Under the pieces are notes generated by a model. That model worked only from the letters and a program-made list of their open reading frames with translations. It did no database searches and was not told where the DNA came from. From Desulfovibrio sp. OttesenSCG-928-I05 (GTDB lineage Bacteria; Desulfobacterota; Desulfovibrionia; Desulfovibrionales; Desulfovibrionaceae), in the NCBI GenBank assembly GCA_030266385.1, contig JAJDHY010000001.1, forward strand, positions 1-40,000: DNA of 40,000 bases, in the 5' to 3' direction. Shown here piece after piece: positions 2,838 to 31,276 of this stretch. Positions within the stretch are counted from its first letter, which is position 1, and every line of letters begins with the position of its first letter. The translations under genes and the position numbers were made by a program.

Positions 2838-3050
2838 TTATTTATCTCGCACTGTTGCTATTGATATGAAGGTGCGCATCGCTTCCTGAATGGTCATTAC
2901 AGAGTGCATCAGGGGAAGGTGCAGGGGGTCGGAGCGGGCCTTTGTGTCATTCTGTGCTTGCTCTTCTGAAAACTTGAGAAGTTCGGAACGTAAAGCGTCC
3001 ATTGCCGCCTGAATAGACTTCAAATTGTCTGCTGTGGTTCCTTTTTCCAT
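2838..3050 (-). CDS. Hypothetical small protein (70 aa)
   Basis: ATG with SD AAGGAG, followed by the terminator. No recognisable motif. Confidence 0.55.
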   Translation of the reverse strand: MEKGTTADNLKSIQAAMDALRSELLKFSEEQAQNDTKARSDPLHLPLMHSVMTIQEAMRTFISIATVRDK

Positions 3051-3223
3051 GGCCTTACTCCTTTTTGAGCAGGGCGAAGGGAACGGTTTTCACAGCCAGA
3101 CTTGGGACGCCTGGGGGAAGCAGCCTTCCCTTGTTCTCCCCGTCGTACTGCCCGTTACAAGTTCATGGCCGGGCAAAATGCGGGTACTCTCCCAACAATA
3201 TAGTGACTGATTTTTTGTGAAAG

Positions 3224-3532
3224 TCAATACGGCTCCAAGCCCTGCGCTTCTCGTTTCACGTTCTCTTCCGCAAGCGTCACCAGATAGCCGAGCGGTTGAT
3301 TCAAAACCTGGGCCATACGCTGCGCATCTCCAAAAACAAGCCGCTGCTGCTTTCCCGCACGCTTTCCCTGGTAGCCCTCTGTAAGCAGCTTGATTTTTTC
3401 GTGTGCGCGTTTTTCGTCTTTGTCGTGCCATACCTTAATTGCAAATTCTTTTAAGGCGCTTTCCGTGCAACCGGCTTTTCTGACGACAAGCTGCACAAAA
3501 GCTCTCTCAAATTTCTCCGCATAAAATTTCAT
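3224..3532 (-). CDS. Hypothetical protein (102 aa)
   Basis: ATG at 3532 with SD GAGGT. It abuts the attL repeat directly. No recognisable motif. Confidence 0.55.
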   Translation of the reverse strand: MKFYAEKFERAFVQLVVRKAGCTESALKEFAIKVWHDKDEKRAHEKIKLLTEGYQGKRAGKQQRLVFGDAQRMAQVLNQPLGYLVTLAEENVKREAQGLEPY

Positions 3533-3533
3533 T

Positions 3534-3575
3534 CATACCTCTGCGTACCCTGACTTTTTTTTCGGGTCTGGCGGA
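3534..3575. repeat. attL-type direct repeat (ICE end distal to the tRNA)
   Basis: CATACC tct GCGTACCCTGACTT ttttttcgggtc TGGCGGA. It matches 31171-31206 in three blocks of 6, 14 and 7 nt. Confidence 0.7.
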
Positions 3576-3662
3576 ACAAGTTTCCGTACAGGCCTGACAA
3601 ATCATGCTATCCGGTCGAAAAATTCGGCATATATTGCCCCAATTTCAACCAAAGGGAAATGC

Positions 3663-3869
3663 ATGAAACAAATTCTTGAACGGTTTTATTCCGTACTTGG
3701 GAGCCCGTCAAAGGTTGCTTGCTACCTTCAATATTCGGACAGGCAACTCCGAAATATTCGGAAAAAGGTGGAGCTTGGCGAACCGCTCGATCCGCGTGTC
3801 GAGCTTTGGATAAAAACAAAGCACGATCTGCTGCATAACGCCCTCACAATCCAGGGCAAAGGAAAATAA
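3663..3869 (+). CDS. Small basic protein, possible HTH regulator; first gene of the leader operon
   Basis: 68-aa ORF with an SD-like AGGGAAA. The segment SPSKVACYLQYSDRQLRNIRKK looks HTH-like. Confidence 0.5.
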   Translation: MKQILERFYSVLGSPSKVACYLQYSDRQLRNIRKKVELGEPLDPRVELWIKTKHDLLHNALTIQGKGK

Positions 3870-3874
3870 CCCCT

Positions 3875-4189
3875 ATGGACGCCAACAAACGCAAGATAGC
3901 GCGAAACGCGGCGAAAGTTGAATTTCTTGCAAACGCGGAAGAAATTTTGTCGATGCTGGACAAGGGTTTTAACAAATTCAACGTTTATAGCGCACTCACA
4001 GAAAAAGGGCGTCTAACCATGGCCTATCGTTCGTTTTGCTGGAATTTGCAGCAATTCAAAAACCCGGAAAAGAGACAAAAAGAGAAAAAAGACACGCCAA
4101 AATCTATTGCTGCACCCCCCCTGCGGGTACCGGCAAAAAAAGAGGGCTTCGGGCAGCTTGAAGACGTTGATGTAAGCAAACTCGTTTAG
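3875..4189 (+). CDS. traK: TraK-like oriT-binding protein (RP4 leader operon type)
   Basis: 104 aa. Resembles my recollection of RP4 TraK in the N-terminal helix region and the C-terminal GF...D..KL tail. It sits directly upstream of the traL homologue. Confidence 0.65.
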   Translation: MDANKRKIARNAAKVEFLANAEEILSMLDKGFNKFNVYSALTEKGRLTMAYRSFCWNLQQFKNPEKRQKEKKDTPKSIAAPPLRVPAKKEGFGQLEDVDVSKLV

Positions 4190-4265: not shown

Positions 4266-4994
4266 ATGGCAACGGTACATTTTATCCAGCAAGGTAAGGG
4301 CGGCGTGGGCAAATCCATGATTGCCGCAATTCTTTATCAAGTCTTGCTCCACCTCGGCAAAGAGGTTGTCGCTTATGACACCGATCCCGTCAATGCCACC
4401 CTGACGGGCTTCAAGGAGTTTTCCGTCACCCGGCTGCACATTTTGAAGCAGGACAACATTGACGTCCGGGCCTTTGACGATCTTCTGGAAGGCATTTTTG
4501 AACTGCCCCAGGAAGCCCATGCCATTGTGGACAATGGCGCGTCAAGTTTCGTCGCCCTCGGCGGCTACCTGAAGGAAAACGACGTCATTCAACTGCTGGA
4601 AGACAACGGACACCGCGTTTTCCTGCATACGGTCATAACGGGCGGGCAAGCCATTCTTGATACGCTTGCCGGTCTGAACCTCCTGGTAAGCGGCTTTCCC
4701 AAGACGCCCATAGTGATCTGGTTGAATCACTACTTCGGGGAGATTCAGATAGACGGCAAGCCTTTTGAAACATTCAATATCTATAAAGAATACTCGCATC
4801 AGTTCCATGCCCTTGTGCCGATTCCGCAAGGCAATCAGGCCACTATCGGCAAAGACCTGGAAAACCTGTTTGCCAAGCGCCAAAGTTTCAAAACTGCTAT
4901 CAACTCCAGCCAGAGCATTGCGGTGCGCTCCCGCCTCATGCGGTATTGGAACGAACTGATTGCCGCTGTCGAAGCGGCGCAAATATCCGCGTAG
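4266..4994 (+). CDS. traL: TraL-like ParA/MinD-fold ATPase (RP4 TraL family)
   Basis: The N-terminus VHFIQQGKGGVGKS, then DTDPVNATL and DNGASSFV, closely match the RP4 TraL pattern. Confidence 0.9.
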   Translation: MATVHFIQQGKGGVGKSMIAAILYQVLLHLGKEVVAYDTDPVNATLTGFKEFSVTRLHILKQDNIDVRAFDDLLEGIFELPQEAHAIVDNGASSFVALGGYLKENDVIQLLEDNGHRVFLHTVITGGQAILDTLAGLNLLVSGFPKTPIVIWLNHYFGEIQIDGKPFETFNIYKEYSHQFHALVPIPQGNQATIGKDLENLFAKRQSFKTAINSSQSIAVRSRLMRYWNELIAAVEAAQISA

Positions 4995-5004
4995 GGGGGC
5001 TGGC

Positions 5005-5496
5005 ATGACAGAAGCTATGCAGACTCCCGAAGTGCCGCAAAAAGCAGCTGCCGTGGAAACTCCCGCCCCCGCTGCCGCCGAAACCGAAAAAGAGCCGCTT
5101 TTGCCTGATGGCATTGGGCTGTCCATTGAAAGCGTCCGTGATCTACTGGTGAAAATCCATGACTGCAAGGTATCGCTGGACGATCCGGTGCTGATGGTCG
5201 TTACGATGCTGAACGCCTACCTGGGGGAAGTCCAGACACTTCAAAAGAGACATGAGGCGGGTCTGTCCCGGCTCATGACCGACAAAACCGATGACTACAT
5301 GAAGGGCGTCAAAGAAGCGGTCAAGGCGTTGCAGGAAGGCCTTTCCTCGGCTTCGGTGGAAGGCATCAAGGCGGTTTTCAACGAGCATGATTCCCGCCTG
5401 AAAGCCTTCAAGAGCAATCTTTCCTGGCTTGCGGCCATTACCGCGTGTTCCGCGATTATCAACGTCATTGCGTTCGTGCTGATGGGGGTGCGCTGA
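5005..5496 (+). CDS. TraM-like protein (assigned by position), coiled coil with a C-terminal TM helix
   Basis: ATG at 5005 follows GGGGGG. Its stop overlaps the trbB start (TGATG). C-terminal hydrophobic helix LAAITACSAIINVIAFVLMG. Confidence 0.5.
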   Translation: MTEAMQTPEVPQKAAAVETPAPAAAETEKEPLLPDGIGLSIESVRDLLVKIHDCKVSLDDPVLMVVTMLNAYLGEVQTLQKRHEAGLSRLMTDKTDDYMKGVKEAVKALQEGLSSASVEGIKAVFNEHDSRLKAFKSNLSWLAAITACSAIINVIAFVLMGVR

Positions 5497-22494: not shown

Positions 22495-23103
22495 TTAATC
22501 TCTGAATATCGCGTAGCCGTTGCTGATTCTTGCGGAAGAATACCCGTCTATGAACAAATCACGGGCAAAGGCTTCATAATCGAAATACCGTGTCAGAAAA
22601 TCCGGCGCGTCATGCGGGATCATTTCGTCCGCCAGTTCGTAGGCGTAATCAAGCTCGCTGTCGTATATTCCGCAAAAGGCATCTTCAAATTCGGAAACGC
22701 AAGATGCTATGTCGTTGGACGAAAAAAGGCCGTAGTAGGCTGCGAAGGCTTCGCCGTGTTCTTCCAGGGCTTCCGCCAGTTCGCAAACATGGTCAAAACT
22801 GGCCCATTCGGAAATGTCGATGCCGTCAAAGCCGGAATAATCGTGTATGGCCCATTCTTCGGCCTTATCGCCGTACTTCTTCGCATAGGGGCTGGCGGCA
22901 AGCATATGATGGACTTCGCACCATACATGATCGACGCCGTAACAACAGGAAATCCAGCAACCGTGAAGGATTCCGCCGTTATAGTCTGAAAGGCTGGCTA
23001 CATATATTGACGGTTCATCCAGGTTTACGGCCTTCCCCTGGCTGTCACGGTTGCTGATGATGGGAAGGGGGCAATCCATAATAAGGTCGGTAGCTGCGCT
23101 CAT
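22495..23103 (-). CDS. ardA: ArdA antirestriction protein
   Basis: 202 aa starting at MSAATD (ATG 23103, SD AAGGAG). The IYVASLSDYNGGILHGCWI pattern and acidic composition are typical of ArdA. Confidence 0.9.
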   Translation of the reverse strand: MSAATDLIMDCPLPIISNRDSQGKAVNLDEPSIYVASLSDYNGGILHGCWISCCYGVDHVWCEVHHMLAASPYAKKYGDKAEEWAIHDYSGFDGIDISEWASFDHVCELAEALEEHGEAFAAYYGLFSSNDIASCVSEFEDAFCGIYDSELDYAYELADEMIPHDAPDFLTRYFDYEAFARDLFIDGYSSARISNGYAIFRD

Positions 23104-23141
23104 GTTCTTCTCTCCTTGGTGGTTTCCGCTATCTCCCCCCA

Positions 23142-23209
23142 ACATTTTCCCTGGCGGGTGGGGGTGCGTTCGCTTTTCACGACGCACCCCCGCACGGCGG
23201 GGAAAATGT
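23142..23209. promoter_or_regulatory. Long imperfect hairpin 39 nt upstream of ardA (possible ssDNA-promoter-like structure)
   Basis: The arms are ACATTTTCCCTGGCGGGTGGGGGTGCGT and ACGCACCCCCGCACGGCGGGGAAAATGT. 24 of 28 positions pair, the mismatches cluster centrally, and the loop is 12 nt. Confidence 0.35.
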
Positions 23210-23477
23210 GTACTCATCGGCCTGTGGGCCATACCGACAAGCCTTTGACCGCGCTTGCGCGTGTGGCCGCATGGACTCCGTGAAGAAGGGAATGGATTGT
23301 GACAACCGGAAGGAGAGAGGCCGAAGGGCGCGGAAGCGCCAGAGCGAAGCGGCGAAGCTGCACAAGCCCGTAGGCCGAACGTATGAGGATTGGCGCAATC
23401 CATGCGCCTTTGGCGCACCGCCGTAACGGAATACTTGCGGCCCCGTTTGTGGTTTGGTGTTCGGAAGTCAGGAAGTC

Positions 23478-23501
23478 TTTTGTGGCAGATTTGCCACAAA
23501 A
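23478..23501. promoter_or_regulatory. Perfect 10-bp palindrome (putative operator)
   Basis: TTTTGTGGCA gatt TGCCACAAAA, 42 nt upstream of the ATG at 23543. Confidence 0.4.
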
Positions 23502-23866: not shown

Positions 23867-24193
23867 CTATACTCTGACGGCATCAAGCCCCTTGTGCTTG
23901 ACGATGGACAGCAGGCGTAAGGCTGGCCCTCCCGGCTTCTTTACGCCCCGCTCCCAATCCGAAACGAGATTTTTAGAAACATTCAGATACCGCGCAAAGA
24001 CAGGCTGTGACAATTTTTCCTTTTCACGAATGGCCCGTATTTCATCCGGCGTTATGGTTTCCACCGGGGCAAGGCAGGATTCGTCAAATTCCCGCATGGT
24101 CGTTTTGTCAATAGCACCTTGGGCGTGAAGTGCTTCGGCGGTTTCATGGATAGCGGCAAAGACTTCGCTCTTATAACTTTTTGTCATGGTCAT
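23867..24193 (-). CDS. higA: HTH (XRE-type) antitoxin, HigA-like
   Basis: C-terminal HTH LSQPVFARYLNVSKNLVSDWERG. SD AAGGAGG before ATGACCATG. Lies downstream of the toxin gene. Confidence 0.85.
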   Translation of the reverse strand: MTMTKSYKSEVFAAIHETAEALHAQGAIDKTTMREFDESCLAPVETITPDEIRAIREKEKLSQPVFARYLNVSKNLVSDWERGVKKPGGPALRLLSIVKHKGLDAVRV

Positions 24194-24204
24194 GCCCTCC
24201 TTCA

Positions 24205-24570
24205 TCAAGGAAGTTCGGTAAAATCGCCGTTTTGCAACATTGATTCAAGTTGCTGGTCTGTCAGGGAAAAAAGTATTTTCGCCAGTTTCTTCATTTCTCT
24301 TGTTTCGTCTTGGGCTATGTTGTCTCTGTCGGACTTGGCAAAGCCGTAGATAAAAAATGTTCGCTCCCCGGCCTTGAAACAGAGAATAACCCTGTATCCT
24401 CCCGATTGGCCTTCCCCCGGCCTTGCAATACGCTGCTTGAATACTCCTGCACCAAGGTCGGCGTCAAAATTGCCCGTTTCGATCTCTCTGACGGCTTCAT
24501 ACAGGGATCTATCCGGTATGCCTTCTTTACGAGTGAATCTGACAAACCATTTGTTTTTGAAAATCCGCAT
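24205..24570 (-). CDS. higB: RelE/HigB-family toxin
   Basis: 121 aa. KQRIARPGEGQSGGYRVILCFK...FFIYGFAKSDRDNI is typical of the RelE-like family that pairs with HTH antitoxins. The toxin-first gene order is the HigBA arrangement. Confidence 0.85.
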   Translation of the reverse strand: MRIFKNKWFVRFTRKEGIPDRSLYEAVREIETGNFDADLGAGVFKQRIARPGEGQSGGYRVILCFKAGERTFFIYGFAKSDRDNIAQDETREMKKLAKILFSLTDQQLESMLQNGDFTELP

Positions 24571-24652: not shown

Positions 24653-26344
24653 CTATCTCGACAATTCTTTCTTTTTCCGCTGCGGGCTTGGCCGCTCGGC
24701 TTCCCGTTCCTGATCAAAAATCAAACGGCCCTTGTCGGCCTTCACCCGGTTGCCCCATTTCTTTTGCGCATACAGTTGAGCAATCTTCTGCGCGGCCTCG
24801 TCATTGCCGGAAGAATAAACCTCGTTGCCGGTATCAAGTATCCGGCCTCCGGTTGGCAGGATGAAAATGACGGCTCCCTTGTTGTCAACGCGCCGGGTTA
24901 TCCCGTCCAGGTATGGAACGGCGGAACCACGCAATTTTTCTTCCTGGGTCAACTCGTCCATGCGCAAAAAGGCTTGAAGCTGGCGTTTCCCTTTTCGTGT
25001 CAGCTCGTCGGATTCCACAATGCGGGCTTGCTGCTCGGCTGCTTCGGCTTTGAGGGCGGCAAGGGCGGCGTAGTCCGGGCGGGCCTTGACCTGGCGCTGT
25101 TCATCTATGGCTGGCGCGGCTTCCGGCACGACAGCCTTTTTGCGCGACCGAAGCACGGCAAGGGCTTTTTCGTCACCGTCTTCGGCCCTCTCGCGCAAAA
25201 AGTCATTCCATGAATACTTGGACGCCTTGGAATAAAGCGCGTCCTGCCCCTTCTGGTTTTCGGCCTTGGCGGCGGCAATCTCGGCGGCTTCCTTCTTCTT
25301 GGCTATCCGGATCAGGTTTTGCCGGTTGCGCTTGTGGATGGTCAGCTTGTCCAGTTCGGCCCGCTTCCTTGCCCATTTGGCCCTGATTTCCTCAATGGAC
25401 TGCCTTTGTTGCTGCTTGGCGATTTCGGCGGCTGCGGCCCTGGCTGCGGCTTCCTGCTCATATTCGGCCCAAAGAGCCTCTTGGGCCGGGGAACGCTGAA
25501 CAGGCTTGCCCCTGTAGCGGTTGACCTCCCGCGCATCGGCCTTTTCCGGGGCGGCATACGCTCCAAAGCGTTTTTCTAGGCTCTTTTTGGACAAACGCCG
25601 GTCAAGTTCACTGGCTTTCATGCCGTGCTTGCCGTGCATATTTTTTATGGCAAGGCCGTTGTTCTGCGGCTTTATGACAAGACCATATTTCGCAAACTCC
25701 TTGTGCAAGTCCTGCCAGCCCTCGGCAGCGTCAAGGGCTTGTGCGATTTGCTCCTTGTACTGCTTCGCATAGGTGTCGAAAGACTCTATGCCCTGCTGCA
25801 ACTCTACGGCCTTGGCCTTCGCGTTGCCCTTCGCCTGTCCTTTGCTCTCCATGCCGTTGTCAACGGTCAAGCCGTATTCCTTTTCAAGCTGACGACAAAG
25901 CCGGTCACGTTTCGTATGGTCGTGGGAATGGTAATTGCGGTTGTGGGTGACGGGATGAATCAAATTGTAGGCAATCTGCAAATGAAGATTTGCCGTGTCG
26001 TTATGAACGGCGCAATGCCTCTGATGCTCGGAAAGCCCCAACACTTCGGCAAAACGCTGTTCAATGTCTTTCAGAATTACCGGTGTCAATTTGGCTTCGT
26101 CCTCCGGTCTGAAACTGATCACAAGATGATAGGTCGGGTTTGCCTTACTGCGGGTATTGAGCGCCTGGGTGTCCGTGGCCTCCGCTATCCCTTCCAGGTA
26201 GTCGTCGCCGCCGATGCAACCGGCGCACCACGCCATAAGGGGGATTTCCTTCTCGTCGGCGTACTCGTCAAGCCGCGCAAGGTATTTCGCAAGCCTTCCG
26301 TAATTGTCATTCGCCGGTTCGATGGGGATATGTCGGCTTATCAT
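24653..26344 (-). CDS. traI: MOBP-family relaxase (RP4 TraI-like)
   Basis: N-terminus MISRHIPIE...LAKYLAR (catalytic Tyr region) and HNDTANLHLQIAYNLIHP (His motif), followed by a long coiled-coil C-terminus. Confidence 0.92.
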   Translation of the reverse strand: MISRHIPIEPANDNYGRLAKYLARLDEYADEKEIPLMAWCAGCIGGDDYLEGIAEATDTQALNTRSKANPTYHLVISFRPEDEAKLTPVILKDIEQRFAEVLGLSEHQRHCAVHNDTANLHLQIAYNLIHPVTHNRNYHSHDHTKRDRLCRQLEKEYGLTVDNGMESKGQAKGNAKAKAVELQQGIESFDTYAKQYKEQIAQALDAAEGWQDLHKEFAKYGLVIKPQNNGLAIKNMHGKHGMKASELDRRLSKKSLEKRFGAYAAPEKADAREVNRYRGKPVQRSPAQEALWAEYEQEAAARAAAAEIAKQQQRQSIEEIRAKWARKRAELDKLTIHKRNRQNLIRIAKKKEAAEIAAAKAENQKGQDALYSKASKYSWNDFLRERAEDGDEKALAVLRSRKKAVVPEAAPAIDEQRQVKARPDYAALAALKAEAAEQQARIVESDELTRKGKRQLQAFLRMDELTQEEKLRGSAVPYLDGITRRVDNKGAVIFILPTGGRILDTGNEVYSSGNDEAAQKIAQLYAQKKWGNRVKADKGRLIFDQEREAERPSPQRKKKELSR

Positions 26345-26348
26345 GCCC

Positions 26349-26675
26349 TTAGGTGCCTATTTTCTTGATTAAAGTTTGAATGTCCATGCGGCAGGAGTCC
26401 AGTTTGCGCAAAAGATGATTGACCTGATCCCTTGGCGCGGCCTCATGGGCAATAGCCTGTTTCAGCAAGCCGCCGATCTGGCCTATCGCGCCCTTGAGGG
26501 CGCGTAATTCCATGCGTTCCTTCTCAAATTCAAGGCTTTTTACTGGCTGGCCCATGCTGGTCAGGCGTAGGAATTTTGATAGGGATAAGCCCGCCCTGGC
26601 GGCGTTCGCCTTTACTTCCCGATATTCCTCTTCCGTCAGGTACGTTGAAACGTGCATTTTTTTGCTTGGCATTGC
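26349..26675 (-). CDS. mobC: MobC-family relaxosome accessory protein
   Basis: Start taken at MPSKKMHVSTYLTEEEY. RHH-like N-terminus and the motif LRALKGAIGQIGGLLKQ. Stop is 4 nt before the relaxase ATG. Confidence 0.8.
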   Translation of the reverse strand, partial: AMPSKKMHVSTYLTEEEYREVKANAARAGLSLSKFLRLTSMGQPVKSLEFEKERMELRALKGAIGQIGGLLKQAIAHEAAPRDQVNHLLRKLDSCRMDIQTLIKKIGT

Positions 26676-27177
26676 GTTGTCCTTCAAACCATGCTTTGAC
26701 TTTTTCCTTGTCTGCCGCCCGAAAAACTCGCCAAGCGTATGCGCGGCCCTTTTCATCGTCTGGCGAGTGGTATTTGCCCACGGCCTTCCAGGTCAGGCCG
26801 TGCCGGGAAATTTCCTCTGCCAGTACCCAGCGGCCCCATAGCTCGTTGTATTCGGGATCAAGCAAGTCTTCCGGGTCGATCCCGAACTGCCCGCACCACC
26901 AGTTGTTGACTTGCCAAAGCCCGACGTCGAAACTTCGTGCGTTGTCCGCCACGGCTCCGCGTAGCAGGATCAGGGCGTCCGCCCTGGTTGCGGGGAAGTA
27001 AGAAACGCCGTTGATATTCAGGGCGTTCGGGTTCAAACGGGATTCATGCTTGGTCAAGGCTTCTTCCAGCCATTCCGGCACTTGCCGGTGATGCTGCGCT
27101 TCCGGTGGATATGCCTTCGCTGCCGCCGTAAACGGCACGAGGCAAACAAGCGCGATAGCGAGAACGTATTTCCGCAT
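26530..27177 (-). CDS. Lytic transglycosylase (TrbN/VirB1-like)
   Basis: Signal peptide, catalytic ES motif (LTKHESRLNPNA), and FDVGLWQVN. The 3' end overlaps mobC out of frame. Confidence 0.85.
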   Translation of the reverse strand: MRKYVLAIALVCLVPFTAAAKAYPPEAQHHRQVPEWLEEALTKHESRLNPNALNINGVSYFPATRADALILLRGAVADNARSFDVGLWQVNNWWCGQFGIDPEDLLDPEYNELWGRWVLAEEISRHGLTWKAVGKYHSPDDEKGRAYAWRVFRAADKEKVKAWFEGQRNAKQKNARFNVPDGRGISGSKGERRQGGLIPIKIPTPDQHGPASKKP

Positions 27178-27253
27178 TTTTTGTCCTTCTTTCTTAGCGT
27201 TGAGCCGTCAGGCGAATAAGCAAACCCCGTAGGGCCGGTCGGGAATAGGTTGC

Positions 27254-27285
27254 GAAGTAAGCTACTTCCCATGTCCGGCCCTCTT
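27254..27285 (+). promoter_or_regulatory. Candidate oriT nick region (inverted repeat plus RP4-like nic sequence)
   Basis: GAAGTA agc TACTTC, then CCATGTCCGGCCC. By my recollection, RP4 has an inverted-repeat arm ending CTACTTCAC followed by CTATCCTG/CCC. Confidence 0.35.
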
Positions 27286-27340
27286 CTGGTTCTGCTGGAA
27301 ATTGCCGACAGTTGCCGAAAACCGGGTGAAAACCGGACGG

Positions 27341-27440
27341 GCATCTTTTGGCATCTGTGGGCATCTTCCTGCATCTTTCAGCCTCTTAGGGCATTTGCGG
27401 GCCGCTGCTGGCCTCTGTTGGCCTCTTCCGGCAATGCGAG
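27341..27440. repeat. Ten tandem, strictly phased 10-bp repeats (GCMTCTNNNG)
   Basis: GCATCTTTTG GCATCTGTGG GCATCTTCCT GCATCTTTCA GCCTCTTAGG GCATTTGCGG GCCGCTGCTG GCCTCTGTTG GCCTCTTCCG GCAATGCGAG. Confidence 0.9.
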
Positions 27441-27532
27441 GGCGCTTTTTTCGCTTCACAGTGATTTTTCTTCCTGGGTCTGTCTTCAAGGCGGGAAATT
27501 GAGAAAGTCTTTCCGCCGCAGAAGCGTTTGCA

Positions 27533-27793
27533 TCACTCAAAATCAAGGTCGGTGAACTGAAAACCGGCGACGCCGGTATGGCAGTATTCGCCCCTGTGGT
27601 TGCGGATAAACAGGTGCTCCGCTTCCAGATCGGCAAGGGATAGCTCCCAACGGAACAGGGAAGGAACGGACAACTTTCTGACCTGATATTTGTCCACGGT
27701 GCCGGTTTTCCGCTGCTTGCTCCGCGCCCATTCAAGACGCTTTTCCAATGGCGAACTGACAACGAAAGGACGTATTCTCCCGCTATTGCTCAT
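27533..27793 (-). CDS. Hypothetical protein (86 aa)
   Basis: ATG at 27793 overlaps the upstream gene's stop by 11 nt. No recognisable motif. Confidence 0.5.
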   Translation of the reverse strand: MSNSGRIRPFVVSSPLEKRLEWARSKQRKTGTVDKYQVRKLSVPSLFRWELSLADLEAEHLFIRNHRGEYCHTGVAGFQFTDLDFE

Positions 27794-28952
27794 GGCTGTT
27801 TGCCCCGCCTTCACCGTGCCCCCCCATTTGCGGGCCTGGCTCCTTTTCCCTGTCGGGCCAGATATGTTGCCGGAAGTGCTGTCTAAGTCGGACTGCTGCC
27901 GGAATGGCAATGCGGTTGTCAGGCCCAAGTATTTCTTGGCGGGCGTCAGGGGTCAGGCTGGCGATCCAGGCGTCCGCTTCGGCTTCACGGCGAGCCTCAT
28001 AGGCTTTCTTCTCCCGGCGCGTGGTCGCTTCGCGGTCACGCTCGGCCTGTTCTGCGGGGGATATGTAGGCTGCGGGGCGGGGGTAATATCCTTGTGTCGC
28101 AAGGATTTTGAATACCCAATTCAGCGGAGTTGAAACGGGTTCGCCCTTGTGGGTGGTCATGCACTCGCGGGCAAGCTCCCATTCCGCATAGGTCAAGCCC
28201 TGCATGATATGCTCAAGCGTTTCACCTACCTGGGCGCGGCGTTGCATGATTTGCCGAATCTGAACCGTGCCGAAACCGACGCGGGCCAGTTCGGGCCAGT
28301 GAAAGGCTATGTCCTCTTCGGAAAGGGATTCCAGAAGTGCGCTATACCTTTTTGAATTTTCAGAAGAGATAGAAAGAATATTTCTATCTATCTTTTCTCT
28401 TAGAATAGAGGGGGCAAAATCGGCGTCAGGGTGGACGCCGGGGTGGACGGCAGGGTGGACGGGTGCGCAAAGGCATGGCCCTGCCGCTCTGATGTGGGGG
28501 CAAAGCATTTCTTGAATGAGGGTGAAGGTAACGCCCTGGCTGGTGCCTACCTTGGCCTGTTTGCGGCGTAAATAGCCGCGATTCACAAGACGCTCGACAC
28601 TTCGGCGGACGGCTCCGGGGGATCGTATCATTGAGTACACTCGCTCCAATTCGGCGGACAGTTGCTTGTACGGGGTCACGGTTGGCCCGATGGCAAGCAA
28701 CAGCCCGATAATGTTGATTTGTGCGGCTGAAAGCCCTTTGCGGCATGAAATACGGTTGATGTCGTCGGGGATTTCAGGATGGACGCCGGGGTGGACGTCA
28801 GGGCGGACGGGGGGCAGGGTGGACGCCAGGGCGCACGTCAGGTCGCACGCTAGGGTGGACGGGTGGACGTCAGGCTGGACGCCAGAATGGACGCCAGGGT
28901 GGACGCCCGCATGAGAGCCGCCAGGGGCGGTAATCATGCTTGCCGCGCTCAC
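27783..28952 (-). CDS. Winged-helix DNA-binding protein, Rep-like, with VHPG-type repeats
   Basis: The GTG start overlaps the alpA stop (GTGA). MarR-like wHTH (YKQLSAELERVYSMIRSPGAVRRSVERLVNRGYL). Repeats V-H-P-G flank it. Confidence 0.7.
   Translation of the reverse strand: MSAASMITAPGGSHAGVHPGVHSGVQPDVHPSTLACDLTCALASTLPPVRPDVHPGVHPEIPDDINRISCRKGLSAAQINIIGLLLAIGPTVTPYKQLSAELERVYSMIRSPGAVRRSVERLVNRGYLRRKQAKVGTSQGVTFTLIQEMLCPHIRAAGPCLCAPVHPAVHPGVHPDADFAPSILREKIDRNILSISSENSKRYSALLESLSEEDIAFHWPELARVGFGTVQIRQIMQRRAQVGETLEHIMQGLTYAEWELARECMTTHKGEPVSTPLNWVFKILATQGYYPRPAAYISPAEQAERDREATTRREKKAYEARREAEADAWIASLTPDARQEILGPDNRIAIPAAVRLRQHFRQHIWPDREKEPGPQMGGHGEGGANSHEQ
28426..28466. repeat. 12-nt repeat cluster 1 inside the Rep-like CDS (3 units, GGTGGACG core)
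   Basis: GGTGGACG at 28430, 28442 and 28454. Confidence 0.85.
28776..28912. repeat. 12-nt repeat cluster 2 inside the Rep-like CDS (about 12 units)
   Basis: Minus-sense units are GTCCACCC and variants. The spacing is 12 nt except for one 8-nt and one 16-nt unit. Confidence 0.85.
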
Positions 28953-29161
28953 TTCCTGCCCATGCCAAGGGAGATTATGAGGGCGCGTATATCTTCAACG
29001 CGCCAGACGGTTATCTTCGGGCTGATTTTGATAGGCTGCGGAAACCTCTTTTCCTTAACTCCATCCCACCATGTAGACTTGCTGATGGGTATAAGTTCAA
29101 GAACTTGGGCAATGCGTAAAAAACCTGTCGGTGGCAATTTTTCCAATAAGTCATTGGACAT
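28949..29161 (-). CDS. alpA: AlpA-family excisionase/regulator
   Basis: MSNDLLEKLPPTGFLRIAQVLELIPISKSTWWDGVKEKRFPQPIKI..VWRVEDI is the classic AlpA pattern. SD AAGGAG. Confidence 0.85.
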   Translation of the reverse strand: MSNDLLEKLPPTGFLRIAQVLELIPISKSTWWDGVKEKRFPQPIKISPKITVWRVEDIRALIISLGMGRK

Positions 29162-29350
29162 GGTAGGCTCCTTCGGAAATGATTTCCCTAGAGCTACCAT
29201 GCGTTTCTGGAGAAACAGGGGCGAAACGGCAAAATGGGAGTTTTTACAAGGTCAGAGTATGTCGAGGTATGCAAAAATATTTTTGTTTTTGTATTGACAG
29301 GGTTTGCATGATTTTCTCACGGTATGGCAGGGTAAATTTTTCTGCGACGG

Positions 29351-29663
29351 GAAAAATGAACGGTCAGCATGGGTACACATTGATCGTTATTTTTCGTTGG
29401 TATGATTCACTATTGTGGGCTTACCCCGTTCTTTCCTGGGTACACTTGGGGCTATCCGGCCTTCTGTTCCTGGGTACACTTGGGTACACCCTGGTTCCGG
29501 CTTGAGGCGGCCTGACTGCTGCGGGCTTCGGAACCAAAAAAGAACGGTCAACGTGGGTACACATTAACCGTTCTTTTTTGTTGCTATTGCTAGGTTTTGT
29601 GAGACTTAGGCTTGCCTTCCTGGGTACGCTTTGGGCTATGCGGCCTTCGATGCCTGGGTACAC
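29351..29663 (+). repeat. Two tandem ~184-bp modules carrying seven TGGGTACAC sites
   Basis: TGGGTACRC at 29370, 29437, 29471, 29481, 29554, 29621 and 29655. Each module starts with an A-run/T-run-flanked hairpin that has the motif in its loop. Confidence 0.85.
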
Positions 29664-31006
29664 TCCGAGGTAAAGTCTGGCAGGGTCAAAGCCCTGATCT
29701 GCTCGGTTTGGTTTTCCCGGCTGGCGGTAGCCTTCAAATTGTCCAAATAATCCGCGTAATCTTGCATCATTTCAGTGCGAGAAGGCAAAAACTCAGCCTT
29801 GTCGTATGTCGCCTTTGCGGATTCTTTTTCAATCGTATGGGACATTTGCTTGTAGATTACGTCCGAACTGTACTCAAACTTTTCTTTGCAGTTGGTAACG
29901 AAGGCATGACGCCAGCCATGTCCGCACATTTCGCCCTTGTAGCCGATACGGGCAAATACCTTATTCATGGCCTCAATGGTGATATGGCCTGTCTGCGCAA
30001 GCTGCGAATGGAAAATATACTTATTCCCGCCAGTGTAACCGTGCAGTTCTTTCAAAAGGCTGACGGCTTGCTTTGAAAGCGGCACGATGAAGTCTTTCCC
30101 GTTCTTCATCCTCTCGCCGGGGATTAGCCATTGGCTTGCGGCCCAATCTATTTCGCTCCATTCACCCTCTACCATGTGAGAGGGGCGCAAAAAAACGTAA
30201 GGCAAAATTTTGGCTGCATAGCAGACTTCAATGCTTCTGCGGCTCTTGGGTTTATCCACTGAACCTTGGGCGTATTGGTCAATATGCAGTAAAAGATGCC
30301 CGATTTTTTCGGGATCGGTAATGCTCGGAAGGCTGTTGTTCTTGGAAGGCTTGGTGAAATTCAAGCCCTTCCAGATCGCATAGGCCGGGTTATGTTCGCA
30401 CTTACCCAAAGCAACGCCAAAGTTGAAAATGCTGACTGTCTTTTCGGCAACCTTCTTTAAGGTCGTGTATTTGCCCGCGTCTTCAAGCCCTTGAAACAAA
30501 GGGCGTATATGCTCCTGCGCCTTCACGTCCTTGATAAGAAGGTGCCCTAACGGCTGGATCAGGTGTTTCCTGATCCGCTTGGCTTCGGCAATAAACGTCT
30601 TCTTTTTCCACTTTTTTTGCACGTCGGAAAGCCAATCTTCGGCTATGGCCCCCAGGCTGTCCGGGTGGCTCTCGCCCCTGGCGATACGCCTTTCTTCGGT
30701 GAAAACGGCAAGCTGTTCTTCGTGCTTGGCCTTTCGTGCCTTGGCGGGGTTTTCACCTCTGTCTAGCTGCTGCCGCAACTCAAAGTTGGCTTCCCGCGCT
30801 TCTTTCAGGCTCATAAATGGAAAATTGCCAAGAGTCAGGTTTTGTTCCTTCCCCATATAAAAGTATCGTGCCCGCCAGATTTTATTTTGGCTGGTGACGA
30901 AAAGCATAAGCCCATTGCCGTCGGACAGTTTGACAGGGGTTAGTTTGCCGGTTTTTGTGTTCAGTTTGGGCTTTGCCGCCTCAATTCCTTTGATAGTCAA
31001 CGCCAT
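29636..31006 (-). CDS. int: Tyrosine integrase, P4-like (N-terminal arm-binding domain)
   Basis: 456 aa. N-terminus MALTIKGIEAAKP...LSDGNGLMLFV. C-terminal catalytic HGWRHAF and a downstream Tyr. Adjacent to the tRNA. Confidence 0.95.
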   Translation of the reverse strand: MALTIKGIEAAKPKLNTKTGKLTPVKLSDGNGLMLFVTSQNKIWRARYFYMGKEQNLTLGNFPFMSLKEAREANFELRQQLDRGENPAKARKAKHEEQLAVFTEERRIARGESHPDSLGAIAEDWLSDVQKKWKKKTFIAEAKRIRKHLIQPLGHLLIKDVKAQEHIRPLFQGLEDAGKYTTLKKVAEKTVSIFNFGVALGKCEHNPAYAIWKGLNFTKPSKNNSLPSITDPEKIGHLLLHIDQYAQGSVDKPKSRRSIEVCYAAKILPYVFLRPSHMVEGEWSEIDWAASQWLIPGERMKNGKDFIVPLSKQAVSLLKELHGYTGGNKYIFHSQLAQTGHITIEAMNKVFARIGYKGEMCGHGWRHAFVTNCKEKFEYSSDVIYKQMSHTIEKESAKATYDKAEFLPSRTEMMQDYADYLDNLKATASRENQTEQIRALTLPDFTSECTQASKAA

Positions 31007-31171: not shown

Positions 31172-31199
31172 ATACCAGGGCGTACCCTGACTTGAAAAC

Positions 31200-31206
<7 letters not shown>
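31171..31206. repeat. attR-type direct repeat (tRNA-proximal ICE end)
   Basis: CATACC agg GCGTACCCTGACTT gaaaac TGGCGGA. The TGGCGGA is the complement of the tRNA 3' end TCCGCCA. Confidence 0.7.

Positions 31207-31276
<70 letters not shown>

Follow-up and report, generated by a model that had tools for sequence, protein, structure and literature searches.

Ten 10-bp repeats beside a predicted RP4-type origin of transfer, a putative accessory-protein arm in a Desulfovibrio integrative conjugative element

Here, we describe a tandem array of ten 10-bp units (positions 27341 to 27440) in the first 40,000 nucleotides of contig JAJDHY010000001.1 from Desulfovibrio sp. OttesenSCG-928-I05 (GenBank assembly GCA_030266385.1). 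This whole 40-kb stretch, hereafter the window, holds an integrative conjugative element (ICE) of ~27.6 kb (3543 to 31193) in a Desulfovibrionaceae host. On balance, we favor the interpretation that the array serves an origin of transfer (oriT) of the IncP (RP4) type as its arm for accessory proteins and is bound by a protein encoded on the element itself, for which a TraK/StbA-family protein is the best candidate. Ten direct sites, a T-tract spacer, and two inverted sites together span 17 to 161 bp from the predicted nick. Loci named by L and a number are related or comparison loci that were fetched for the analysis.

A ten-unit array with a 10-bp period

The array is real and far beyond chance. 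Every one of its head-to-tail 10-nt blocks starts with GCA (six units) or GCC (four units), and seven of the ten match GCMTCT, as a reading made from the sequence alone (the sequence-only reading) had described. On the minus strand, the units are NNNAGAKGCC-like, and the nic-distal unit, CGCATTGCCG, is of the TTGCC type. Tandem Repeats Finder reported period 10 at 27340-27387 and 27396-27426 and period 20 at 27339-27433, and a repeat search of the window returned the array as a repeat family spaced at 10 bp. For the 100-bp segment, autocorrelation at lags 10, 20, and 30 was 0.644, 0.588, and 0.586, respectively, and no short-period signal in the window is stronger. Set against all 100-bp windows of the 40 kb (lag-10 mean 0.258, standard deviation 0.054), the lag-10 score lies ~7 standard deviations over the mean, with the runner-up at 0.467; the sole comparable short-period signal in the window is a 12-bp coding repeat at ~28800. 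Array and flanking repeats are arranged as follows.

27341-27440, no strand assigned: array of ten 10-bp units (repeat search, Tandem Repeats Finder, and autocorrelation; same-position arrays in relatives).
27317-27336, no strand assigned: spacer with two copies of GAAAACCGG (27317-27325 and 27328-27336), 11 bp apart (repeat search).
27296-27316, plus strand: two inverted units 10 bp apart, AATTGCC (27300-27306) and AGTTGCC (27310-27316) (repeat search).

The two direct repeats that had been noticed ahead of the array are thus present. They read as T-tracts on the minus strand, and in close relatives the spacer is kept as (G)TTTTC..TTTTCGG. Together with the distal end of the array (27420-27435), the inverted units make up a long-range inverted repeat that is imperfect. 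Because relatives vary here by unit-sized indels and by changes in unit sequence, the region is considered noncoding, in line with the earlier argument that such a period could not reflect coding.

A further claim, that the units stand in perfect helical phase, is right about the 10-bp spacing and overstated in the word "perfect." B-DNA has ~10.5 bp per turn, so that a spacing of 10.0 bp turns successive sites by about -17 degrees, or about half a turn across the array. For the sites to share one face, the DNA would have to be overwound or to follow a left-handed wrap, and the drift of ~17 degrees per unit fits wrapped or overwound DNA.

The array flanks a predicted RP4-type nick region

The array had been placed next to a candidate nick site, and alignment agrees: its flank aligns with the RP4 oriT core, and the array falls on the side where TraK binds in RP4. 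Three elements of this flank, and the genes on either side of the array (all of them on the minus strand), are listed below.

27262-27285, plus strand: nick-region core, CTACTTCCCATGTCCGG followed by CCCTCT, an invariant block among relatives (alignment with an RP4-type plasmid and 9 related loci).
27251-27271, no strand assigned: nick-proximal inverted repeat, TGCGAAGTA and TACTTCCCA, counterpart of the TraJ-bound RP4 repeat (repeat search).
27197-27220, minus strand: block CTTATTCGCC..GGCTCAACGC, common with RP4 upstream of traJ (alignment).
26530-27177, minus strand: lytic transglycosylase, first gene of the relaxase operon downstream of oriT (Pfam SLT, 5.7e-8).
26349-26756, minus strand: TraJ/NikA-like ribbon-helix-helix oriT-binding protein (Pfam NikA-like, 1.8e-14; NCBIfam TraJ, 3.9e-12).
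24653-26344, minus strand: TraI/MobA(P) relaxase (NCBIfam TraI_MobP_relax, 3.8e-119; Pfam Relaxase and TraI_middle).
27533-27793, minus strand: 86-amino-acid protein with a conserved C-terminal half (closest relatives only).
27783-28952, minus strand: 389-amino-acid winged-helix protein with a novel helical C-terminal domain.

The last two genes lie upstream of the array, and the genes for the transglycosylase (SLT), the NikA/TraJ-like protein, and the MOBP relaxase TraI lie downstream of it. In the window core, CTACTTCCCATGTCCGG followed by CCC aligns with CTTCACCTATCCTG followed by CCC in RP4 and with 9 related loci, although the core hexamer departs from that of RP4 (TGTCCGG in the window versus TATCCTG). 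Just downstream of the array, the minus strand reads GGCCGGACATGGGAAGTAG..CTTATTCGCC..GGCTCAACGC, which aligns with RP4 GGCAGGATAGGTGAAGTAG..CTTATTCGCA..GTGCTCAACG and with nine related loci, and a CTTATTCGC..GCTCAACG block that precedes the traJ-like/TraI operon also aligns with RP4. From these alignments, the nick is predicted between 27278 and 27279, with the plus strand as the transferred strand. By this prediction, the array would extend from +62 to +161 on the transferred strand, at the leading side and away from the relaxase operon. The inverted repeat at 27251-27271 sits 8 bp from the predicted nick, and in RP4 a TraJ-bound inverted repeat lies 8 bp from nic (PMC7314908).

The block at 27197-27220 is likely the promoter/leader of the SLT-traJ-traI operon. 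A scan of 27000-27900 returned no sigma-70-like promoter and terminator-like matches at background level only, and an Rfam traJ-II match at 27223-27281 is weak (22 bits, under the gathering score). With its core, inverted repeat, and adjacent TraJ-like/TraI operon, the oriT can be classed, as far as sequence goes, as IncP/RP4-type (MOBP). The SLT open reading frame (ORF; 215 amino acids) overlaps the annotated start of the NikA/TraJ-like gene (26530-26756), and the corresponding SLT protein in L044 has 171 amino acids. The true start of the NikA/TraJ-like gene is probably near 26672, judging from homologues that begin MPSKK.

Period and layout persist while unit sequences turn over

The expectation that the periodic pattern would be found in related elements was borne out in two sets of loci. 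In 14 fetched loci that share the core (13 related loci and the window), the 200 bp upstream of the core were scored, and the best autocorrelation fell at lag 10 in 11, a value equaled by 0 to 2 of 500 shuffles. As an independent test, metagenome contigs were scanned with the 18-nt core pattern only, and a core was counted as true when followed by the CTTATTCGC block. A lag-10 z score of at least 4 was seen in 8 of 23 true-core clusters and in none of 65 chance-match clusters.

The layout does not change. Positions -157 to -55 from the core are taken up by about ten direct units, in many cases with a 1-bp shift of phase in midarray; the T-tract spacer comes next, and then inverted units at -36 to -16, two or three of which are found in L043, L044, L046, L001, L048, and L177. 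Close relatives share the gene order int, alpA, 389-amino-acid protein, (small ORF), array, oriT core, SLT, nikA, relaxase. The unit itself differs between elements.

Window: AGATGCC/AGAGGCC.
L052: AGCGGC.
L043, L044, and L046: RTTGCC.
L001: TATTGAA.
L048: AAGCATA.
L049: GAAAYAT.
L021: TGCRAA.
L023: about 45 units, AT rich.

The metagenome set adds AGTGTTA (L177), ATCTTA (L109), and TTGGCCTGA (L117), and there too inverted units follow the direct ones. The TTGCC type is retained by the outermost direct unit and by the inverted units of the window and of L052, and L067 mixes GTTGCC and AGCGGCT units. The arm of L023 is expanded (2850-3250) and holds ~45 10-bp units in a row, from three unit families that follow one another, ahead of the same oriT core. 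Direct and inverted units change sequence together between elements, which argues for sequence-specific recognition, and array position and layout persist between elements whose proteins are <50% identical.

Many array-bearing oriTs in the metagenome set lack a homologue of the 389-amino-acid protein, and some arrays stand at orphan oriTs beside recombinase/transposon genes, with neither nikA nor relaxase in the fetched flanks. The array is therefore a cis part of oriT, which a trans-acting factor would read. Four loci (L090, L131, L152, and L175) have RP4-type cores with TATTGAA-type units, as in L001, beside serine-recombinase and transposase-like genes, and their fetched flanks contain no nikA or relaxase gene; they may be orphan oriTs that carry the unit of L001.

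A TraK-family protein as the candidate reader

Near the left end of the ICE, three genes on the plus strand follow the RP4 order traK-traL-traM.

3875-4189, plus strand: TraK-family protein, 104 amino acids (Pfam DUF5338).
4266-4994, plus strand: TraL, ParA/MinD-like ATPase with a KGGVGKS motif, StbB/VirC1 class (NCBIfam TraL; Pfam CbiA).
4960-5496, plus strand: protein of 178 amino acids at the TraM position (weak NCBIfam TraM match, E 0.008; RP4 traK-traL-traM synteny).

The TraK-like protein matches DUF5338 at 6.2e-10, above the cut-off, and the TraK of an RP4-type plasmid matches the whole of that model at 6.9e-29; the two proteins match each other in BLASTP at 3e-5. Its membership in the TraK family is established by these profile and pairwise matches. 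The TraL match is full-length (1.7e-70), but its 237 bits stay below the curated cut-off of 360. For the TraK-like protein, a long N-terminal helix and two short ones after it are predicted, the same topology as has been described for StbA.

Read around the excised circle, the features follow one another as nic, array, 86-amino-acid protein, 389-amino-acid protein, alpA, int, attP, small ORF, traK, traL, traM. We infer that this corresponds to the RP4 order of nic, TraK arm, traK, traL, and traM, except that the integration module separates the TraK arm from traK. The features from which the circle and the module are deduced are listed below.

3543-3556, plus strand: putative attL, 14-bp direct repeat GCGTACCCTGACTT (repeat search).
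31180-31193: right copy of GCGTACCCTGACTT, putative attR, beside tRNA-Asp.
31200-31276: tRNA-Asp, marking the right end of the ICE.
29636-31006: P4-type integrase, at the right end of the ICE.
28949-29200: AlpA, at the right end of the ICE.

Integrase arm-type sites were considered for the array and rejected, as the att site is 3.7 kb away and the array goes with the nick core.

By position and by homology to RP4, TraK appears to be the best candidate reader of the array. Some features of a TraK/StbA-type arm are found here: a location on the leading side, a TraK-family gene, an adjacent gene for a TraL-class ATPase, and repeats of about one helical turn. The proposal in the sequence-only reading of a protein-binding array, comparable to the TraK-wrapped region of RP4 or to a centromere, thus draws support from the oriT alignment, the TraK and TraL homologues, and the conserved period. 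Its list of candidate binders is narrowed: the TraK-like protein stays as the prime candidate, whereas the reading parts of the MobC/NikA-like and 389-amino-acid proteins do not covary with the unit. No evidence was found that the 389-amino-acid protein is a Rep, and arrays exist without its gene.

Several observations weigh against TraK as the reader. The traK gene lies 23.4 kb from the array when the element is integrated and ~4.3 kb from it in the excised circle, so that a binder gene next to an array overlying its own promoter is not what is seen; the genes on that side converge on the array. At four loci with traK right beside oriT (L047, L017, L073, and L144), the tandem array is weak or absent, and a strong array is therefore not a general requirement for TraK and could even be a substitute for it. 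Strong arrays were seen where traK is not adjacent, a contrast that rests on only four traK-adjacent cases. Among 14 TraK homologues, the N-terminal domain is rather conserved, although the units turn over fast; TraK homologues were recovered only from short contigs or from contigs not shared with oriT loci. Array-bearing integrative and mobilizable elements (IMEs) have no traK within the fetched flanks, and the TraK arms of IncP/RP4-type plasmids show at most a modest 10- to 11-bp periodicity, weaker than that of the arrays. A Foldseek search with the TraK model gave no significant match and did not retrieve StbA, and hhalign of the TraK profile against R46 StbA was weak (probability 7.7%); the link between TraK and StbA therefore rests on the literature. 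A tblastn search of plasmids with the TraK-like protein gave no match, and a literature search returned nothing on DUF5338 or on the periodicity of oriT repeats.

Alternative explanations for the array

An alternative hypothesis, possible if doubtful, is that the array is read by another protein of the element (the 389-amino-acid protein, the 86-amino-acid protein, the TraJ/NikA-like ribbon-helix-helix protein, or AlpA) and serves as an oriT accessory site or as a switch between excision and transfer. The 389-amino-acid gene ends 30 to 500 bp from the array in all 13 related RP4-core loci of a protein-based search, and residues 70 to 150 of its product are predicted to fold as a MarR/PadR-like winged helix; the 86-amino-acid protein has a basic, fast-evolving N-terminal half, and ribbon-helix-helix proteins such as omega and ParR, which bind short direct and inverted repeats, lend this hypothesis some precedent. 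Yet the recognition helix and wing of the 389-amino-acid protein are essentially identical between the window (AGAKGCC) and L043, L044, and L046 (RTTGCC), and the helix-turn-helix of AlpA is likewise unchanged between the window and the RTTGCC group. L043, L001, and L050, with different or weak arrays, share one NikA beta-strand, and L044, which has the units of L043, has another. Many loci have arrays with no homologue of the 389- or 86-amino-acid protein, orphan oriTs have them with no nikA, and homologues of the 389-amino-acid protein also stand beside array-less oriTs of other types. The 389-amino-acid protein is thus probably not the array reader. We consider it unlikely that the array works with no dedicated binder, either as a curved or anisotropically bendable duplex or as a hairpin of direct and inverted units in the transferred strand for priming or early transcription in the recipient. 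In a wedge model, which gave the expected result for phased A-tracts, 8 of 18 array arms rank within the top ~3% of their loci for curvature, taken over 140-bp segments, and intrinsic curvature has been described for the TraK arm of RP4 (PMC7314908). The inverted units of L001 and L044 are near-perfect complements, 18 to 19 nt long, of two direct units, and, by the polarity of RP4, the array would enter the recipient first. Against this, inverted pairing in the window is poor (16 nt, 75%), a strict 10-nt unit over many lineages has no rationale in single-stranded DNA, and a unit that is specific to each element and common to its direct and inverted copies is a signature of specific recognition. 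Curvature prediction had been suggested as a check on bending, and in the wedge model the window array is unremarkable (35th percentile) and is not predicted to be strongly curved; static curvature was dropped as an explanation for it.

It is very unlikely that the array is an iteron replication origin or a classical centromere of the excised ICE, with the 389-amino-acid protein as initiator or else with a ParR/ParB-like adaptor. The order int-alpA-(389-amino-acid gene)-repeats resembles the int-rep-ori order of satellite islands, and a ParA-like ATPase is present. That ATPase is TraL, not a partition ParA, with no ParB, ParG, or ParR neighbor, and the window holds no parA/parM-adaptor operon of a type Ib/II centromere, TraL being its only ParA-like protein. 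The 389-amino-acid protein matches no Rep, primase, or helicase family; typical iterons measure 17 to 22 bp, as opposed to the 10 bp of the array units; the region has no AT-rich unwinding element (GC 0.55); and only one DnaA box, with 1 mismatch, lies nearby, DnaA boxes not being enriched. The arrays also stand at a constant distance from the nick core and are still present where the 389-amino-acid gene is missing. Neutral replication slippage with no function, to which we give almost no credence, would account for the variation in unit number and sequence, as in the ~45 units of L023 and the mixed units of L067. It sits poorly with a 10-bp period in every array-bearing lineage found, with a position and layout that outlast divergence of the proteins to <50% identity, and with a signal that is seen at true oriTs and in none of the 65 controls.

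Homologues of the 389-amino-acid protein come from Desulfovibrionaceae genomes and gut metagenomes, and they constitute an uncharacterized oriT-associated winged-helix family. Fold and sequence searches with the window protein returned the winged helix only, leaving its C-terminal domain unmatched. Tandem 12-bp repeats (CAGGGTGGACGC as written on the plus strand) at 28775-28907 and 28427-28462 encode VHPG-type tetrapeptides in the disordered N terminus and the linker of this protein. A lag-12 signal occurs at the 5' end of nearly all homologous genes, and the peptide repeat differs between them. The homologues lie directly upstream of at least three types of oriT/mob module, with or without repeats (L005, L006, L009, L013, L015, and L022; L007, L011, and L014). 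In L005, L006, L009, L013, L015, and L022, the module follows the homologue after ~60 to 200 bp. One of the types is a MobC-type module preceded by AGCCAGCCTACCCG, and L015 has 2 + 2 inverted 10-bp units (CAATATTCGC) ahead of such an oriT.

Comparison with known systems

The closest known and best-documented analogue of the array is the StbA-stbDR system of plasmids R388 and R46. There, the binding sites of StbA beside oriT are 9-bp repeats with 2 bp between them, arranged as two groups of five (PMC3098194), and consecutive repeats are bound cooperatively (bioRxiv 10.1101/2022.04.29.490116). The stbDR repeats are needed for the effects of StbA on conjugation and stability, and the Stb system controls conjugation, transcription, and plasmid positioning (PMC3098194; bioRxiv 10.1101/2022.04.29.490116). 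StbA is reported by its authors to be a PSI-BLAST homologue of RP4 TraK, and they grouped RP4 TraL among the StbB-like ATPases (PMC3098194). We confirmed 11-bp arrays upstream of stbA in R46 (L180, 20318-20370 and 20427-20489). Like these, the array of the ICE comprises about ten short direct repeats one helical turn apart, beside oriT and away from the relaxase genes. The cooperative binder in R388/R46 is a small helix-turn-helix protein, StbA, whose cognate in the ICE would be the candidate TraK-like protein, and the ParA-like partner of the TraL/VirC1 class is StbB in those plasmids and TraL in the ICE. In contrast, the period is 10 bp instead of 11, there is one ten-unit block with two inverted units instead of two sets of five, the oriT and relaxase are MOBP/IncP-like instead of MOBF, the element is an ICE and not a plasmid, and the binder gene is not adjacent, so that the array lies off its promoter.

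In RP4, TraK binds a curved oriT region of ~200 bp and represses traJp and traKp (PMC7314908). The ICE shares with RP4 a homologous oriT core, the position of the array relative to nic and to the traJ-traI operon, a DUF5338 protein, and traK-traL-traM synteny. Ziegelin et al. (1992) are said to have found that ~180 bp is wrapped in the TraK complex of RP4. Unlike the ICE, RP4 has no discrete tandem repeats, its best periodicity not being significant, and traK is adjacent to oriT and divergent there, whereas in the ICE the integration module separates the two. The RP4 region is curved, in contrast to the prediction of the wedge model for the window array.

Other cis-acting sites are alike in part. 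In the pheromone plasmids pAD1 and pAM373, short direct repeats of about one turn reportedly lie beside a conserved oriT inverted repeat (Francia and Clewell, 2002); the repeats reportedly vary from one related plasmid to another, with a presumed role in the specificity of oriT. These are plasmids of Gram-positive bacteria and have an unrelated relaxase family. The ParR-parC centromeres of R1 and pSK41 and the omega-heptad centromeres also have tandem short repeats, direct and inverted, which are bound cooperatively into a superhelical partition complex; unlike the array, they belong to parMR or delta/omega operons with ribbon-helix-helix adaptors, none of which is found in the window. In the VirC1/VirC2-overdrive system of Ti plasmids, a ParA-like ATPase and a DNA-binding partner act at a cis site by the nick and aid relaxosome assembly and positioning (PMC3098194). 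We found no VirC2 homologue for the ICE. Overdrive is a single element of ~24 bp and not a phased array.

Other features of the element and its surroundings

The plus strand of the ICE also encodes a VirB/Trb-type secretion system, a coupling protein, ArdC, and topoisomerase III, and ArdA is encoded on the minus strand. The ArdA domain forms the C terminus of a 334-amino-acid protein (22495-23499), whose preceding N-terminal part of 160 amino acids has no assignment. A RelE (PF06296)/helix-turn-helix toxin-antitoxin pair (23867-24570) adjoins the relaxase gene. Ahead of traK, a 69-codon ORF (3664-3870) is preceded by a TTGCC-type inverted pair, GGCATATATTGCC (3626-3638), which could be an operator; WRTTGCC is not enriched in the window. 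A position weight matrix scan of the window gave no convincing second cluster of units, the matrix being low in information. A DNA similarity search with the region returned nothing among plasmids or Escherichia coli genomes. Outside the ICE, the low-GC host flank contains a perfect (AG)16.5 dinucleotide repeat (2078-2110).

Proposed model and implications

We propose that a sequence-specific protein of the element would bind the units cooperatively, head to tail and one per helical turn, to give a wrapped or stiffened nucleoprotein complex. This complex may aid the opening and nicking of oriT by the TraJ-like protein and the TraI relaxase, and it would probably repress the adjacent promoter. 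It could also serve as a handle by which the ParA-like TraL positions the excised element or the relaxosome at the secretion system, as StbA, stbDR, and StbB do in R388. The 10-bp period, the direct-plus-inverted layout, the fast turnover of units, and the nonadjacent gene of the candidate binder set this arm apart from known TraK/StbA arms.

We speculate, with considerable reserve, that the 10-bp units act as an oriT "address code" for cognate TraK/StbA proteins supplied in trans. In that case, the arrays of ICEs, of IMEs with a relaxase, and even of orphan oriTs in transposon-like DNA would match the TraK of one helper, and long arrays would arise where traK is not in cis, capturing a diffusible protein. 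The TATTGAA unit, common to L001 and the orphan oriTs of L090, L131, L152, and L175, is an example of what such a code might look like. Were it true, array identity would decide who mobilizes whom in gut and sediment communities.

No concept is overturned by the accessory-arm model. If it holds, MOBP oriTs of integrative elements would bear an explicit, countable array of TraK sites, and both the TraK-oriT complex and the role of TraL would become testable with defined repeats. The TraK/TraL/TraM module of IncP plasmids would be tied to the StbA/StbB/StbC module of IncW and IncN plasmids. A simple signature, about ten 10-bp units and two inverted units ahead of an RP4-like core, would then serve to annotate oriTs and to predict the specificity of mobilization for ICEs, IMEs, and orphan oriTs in Desulfovibrionaceae as well as in other anaerobes.

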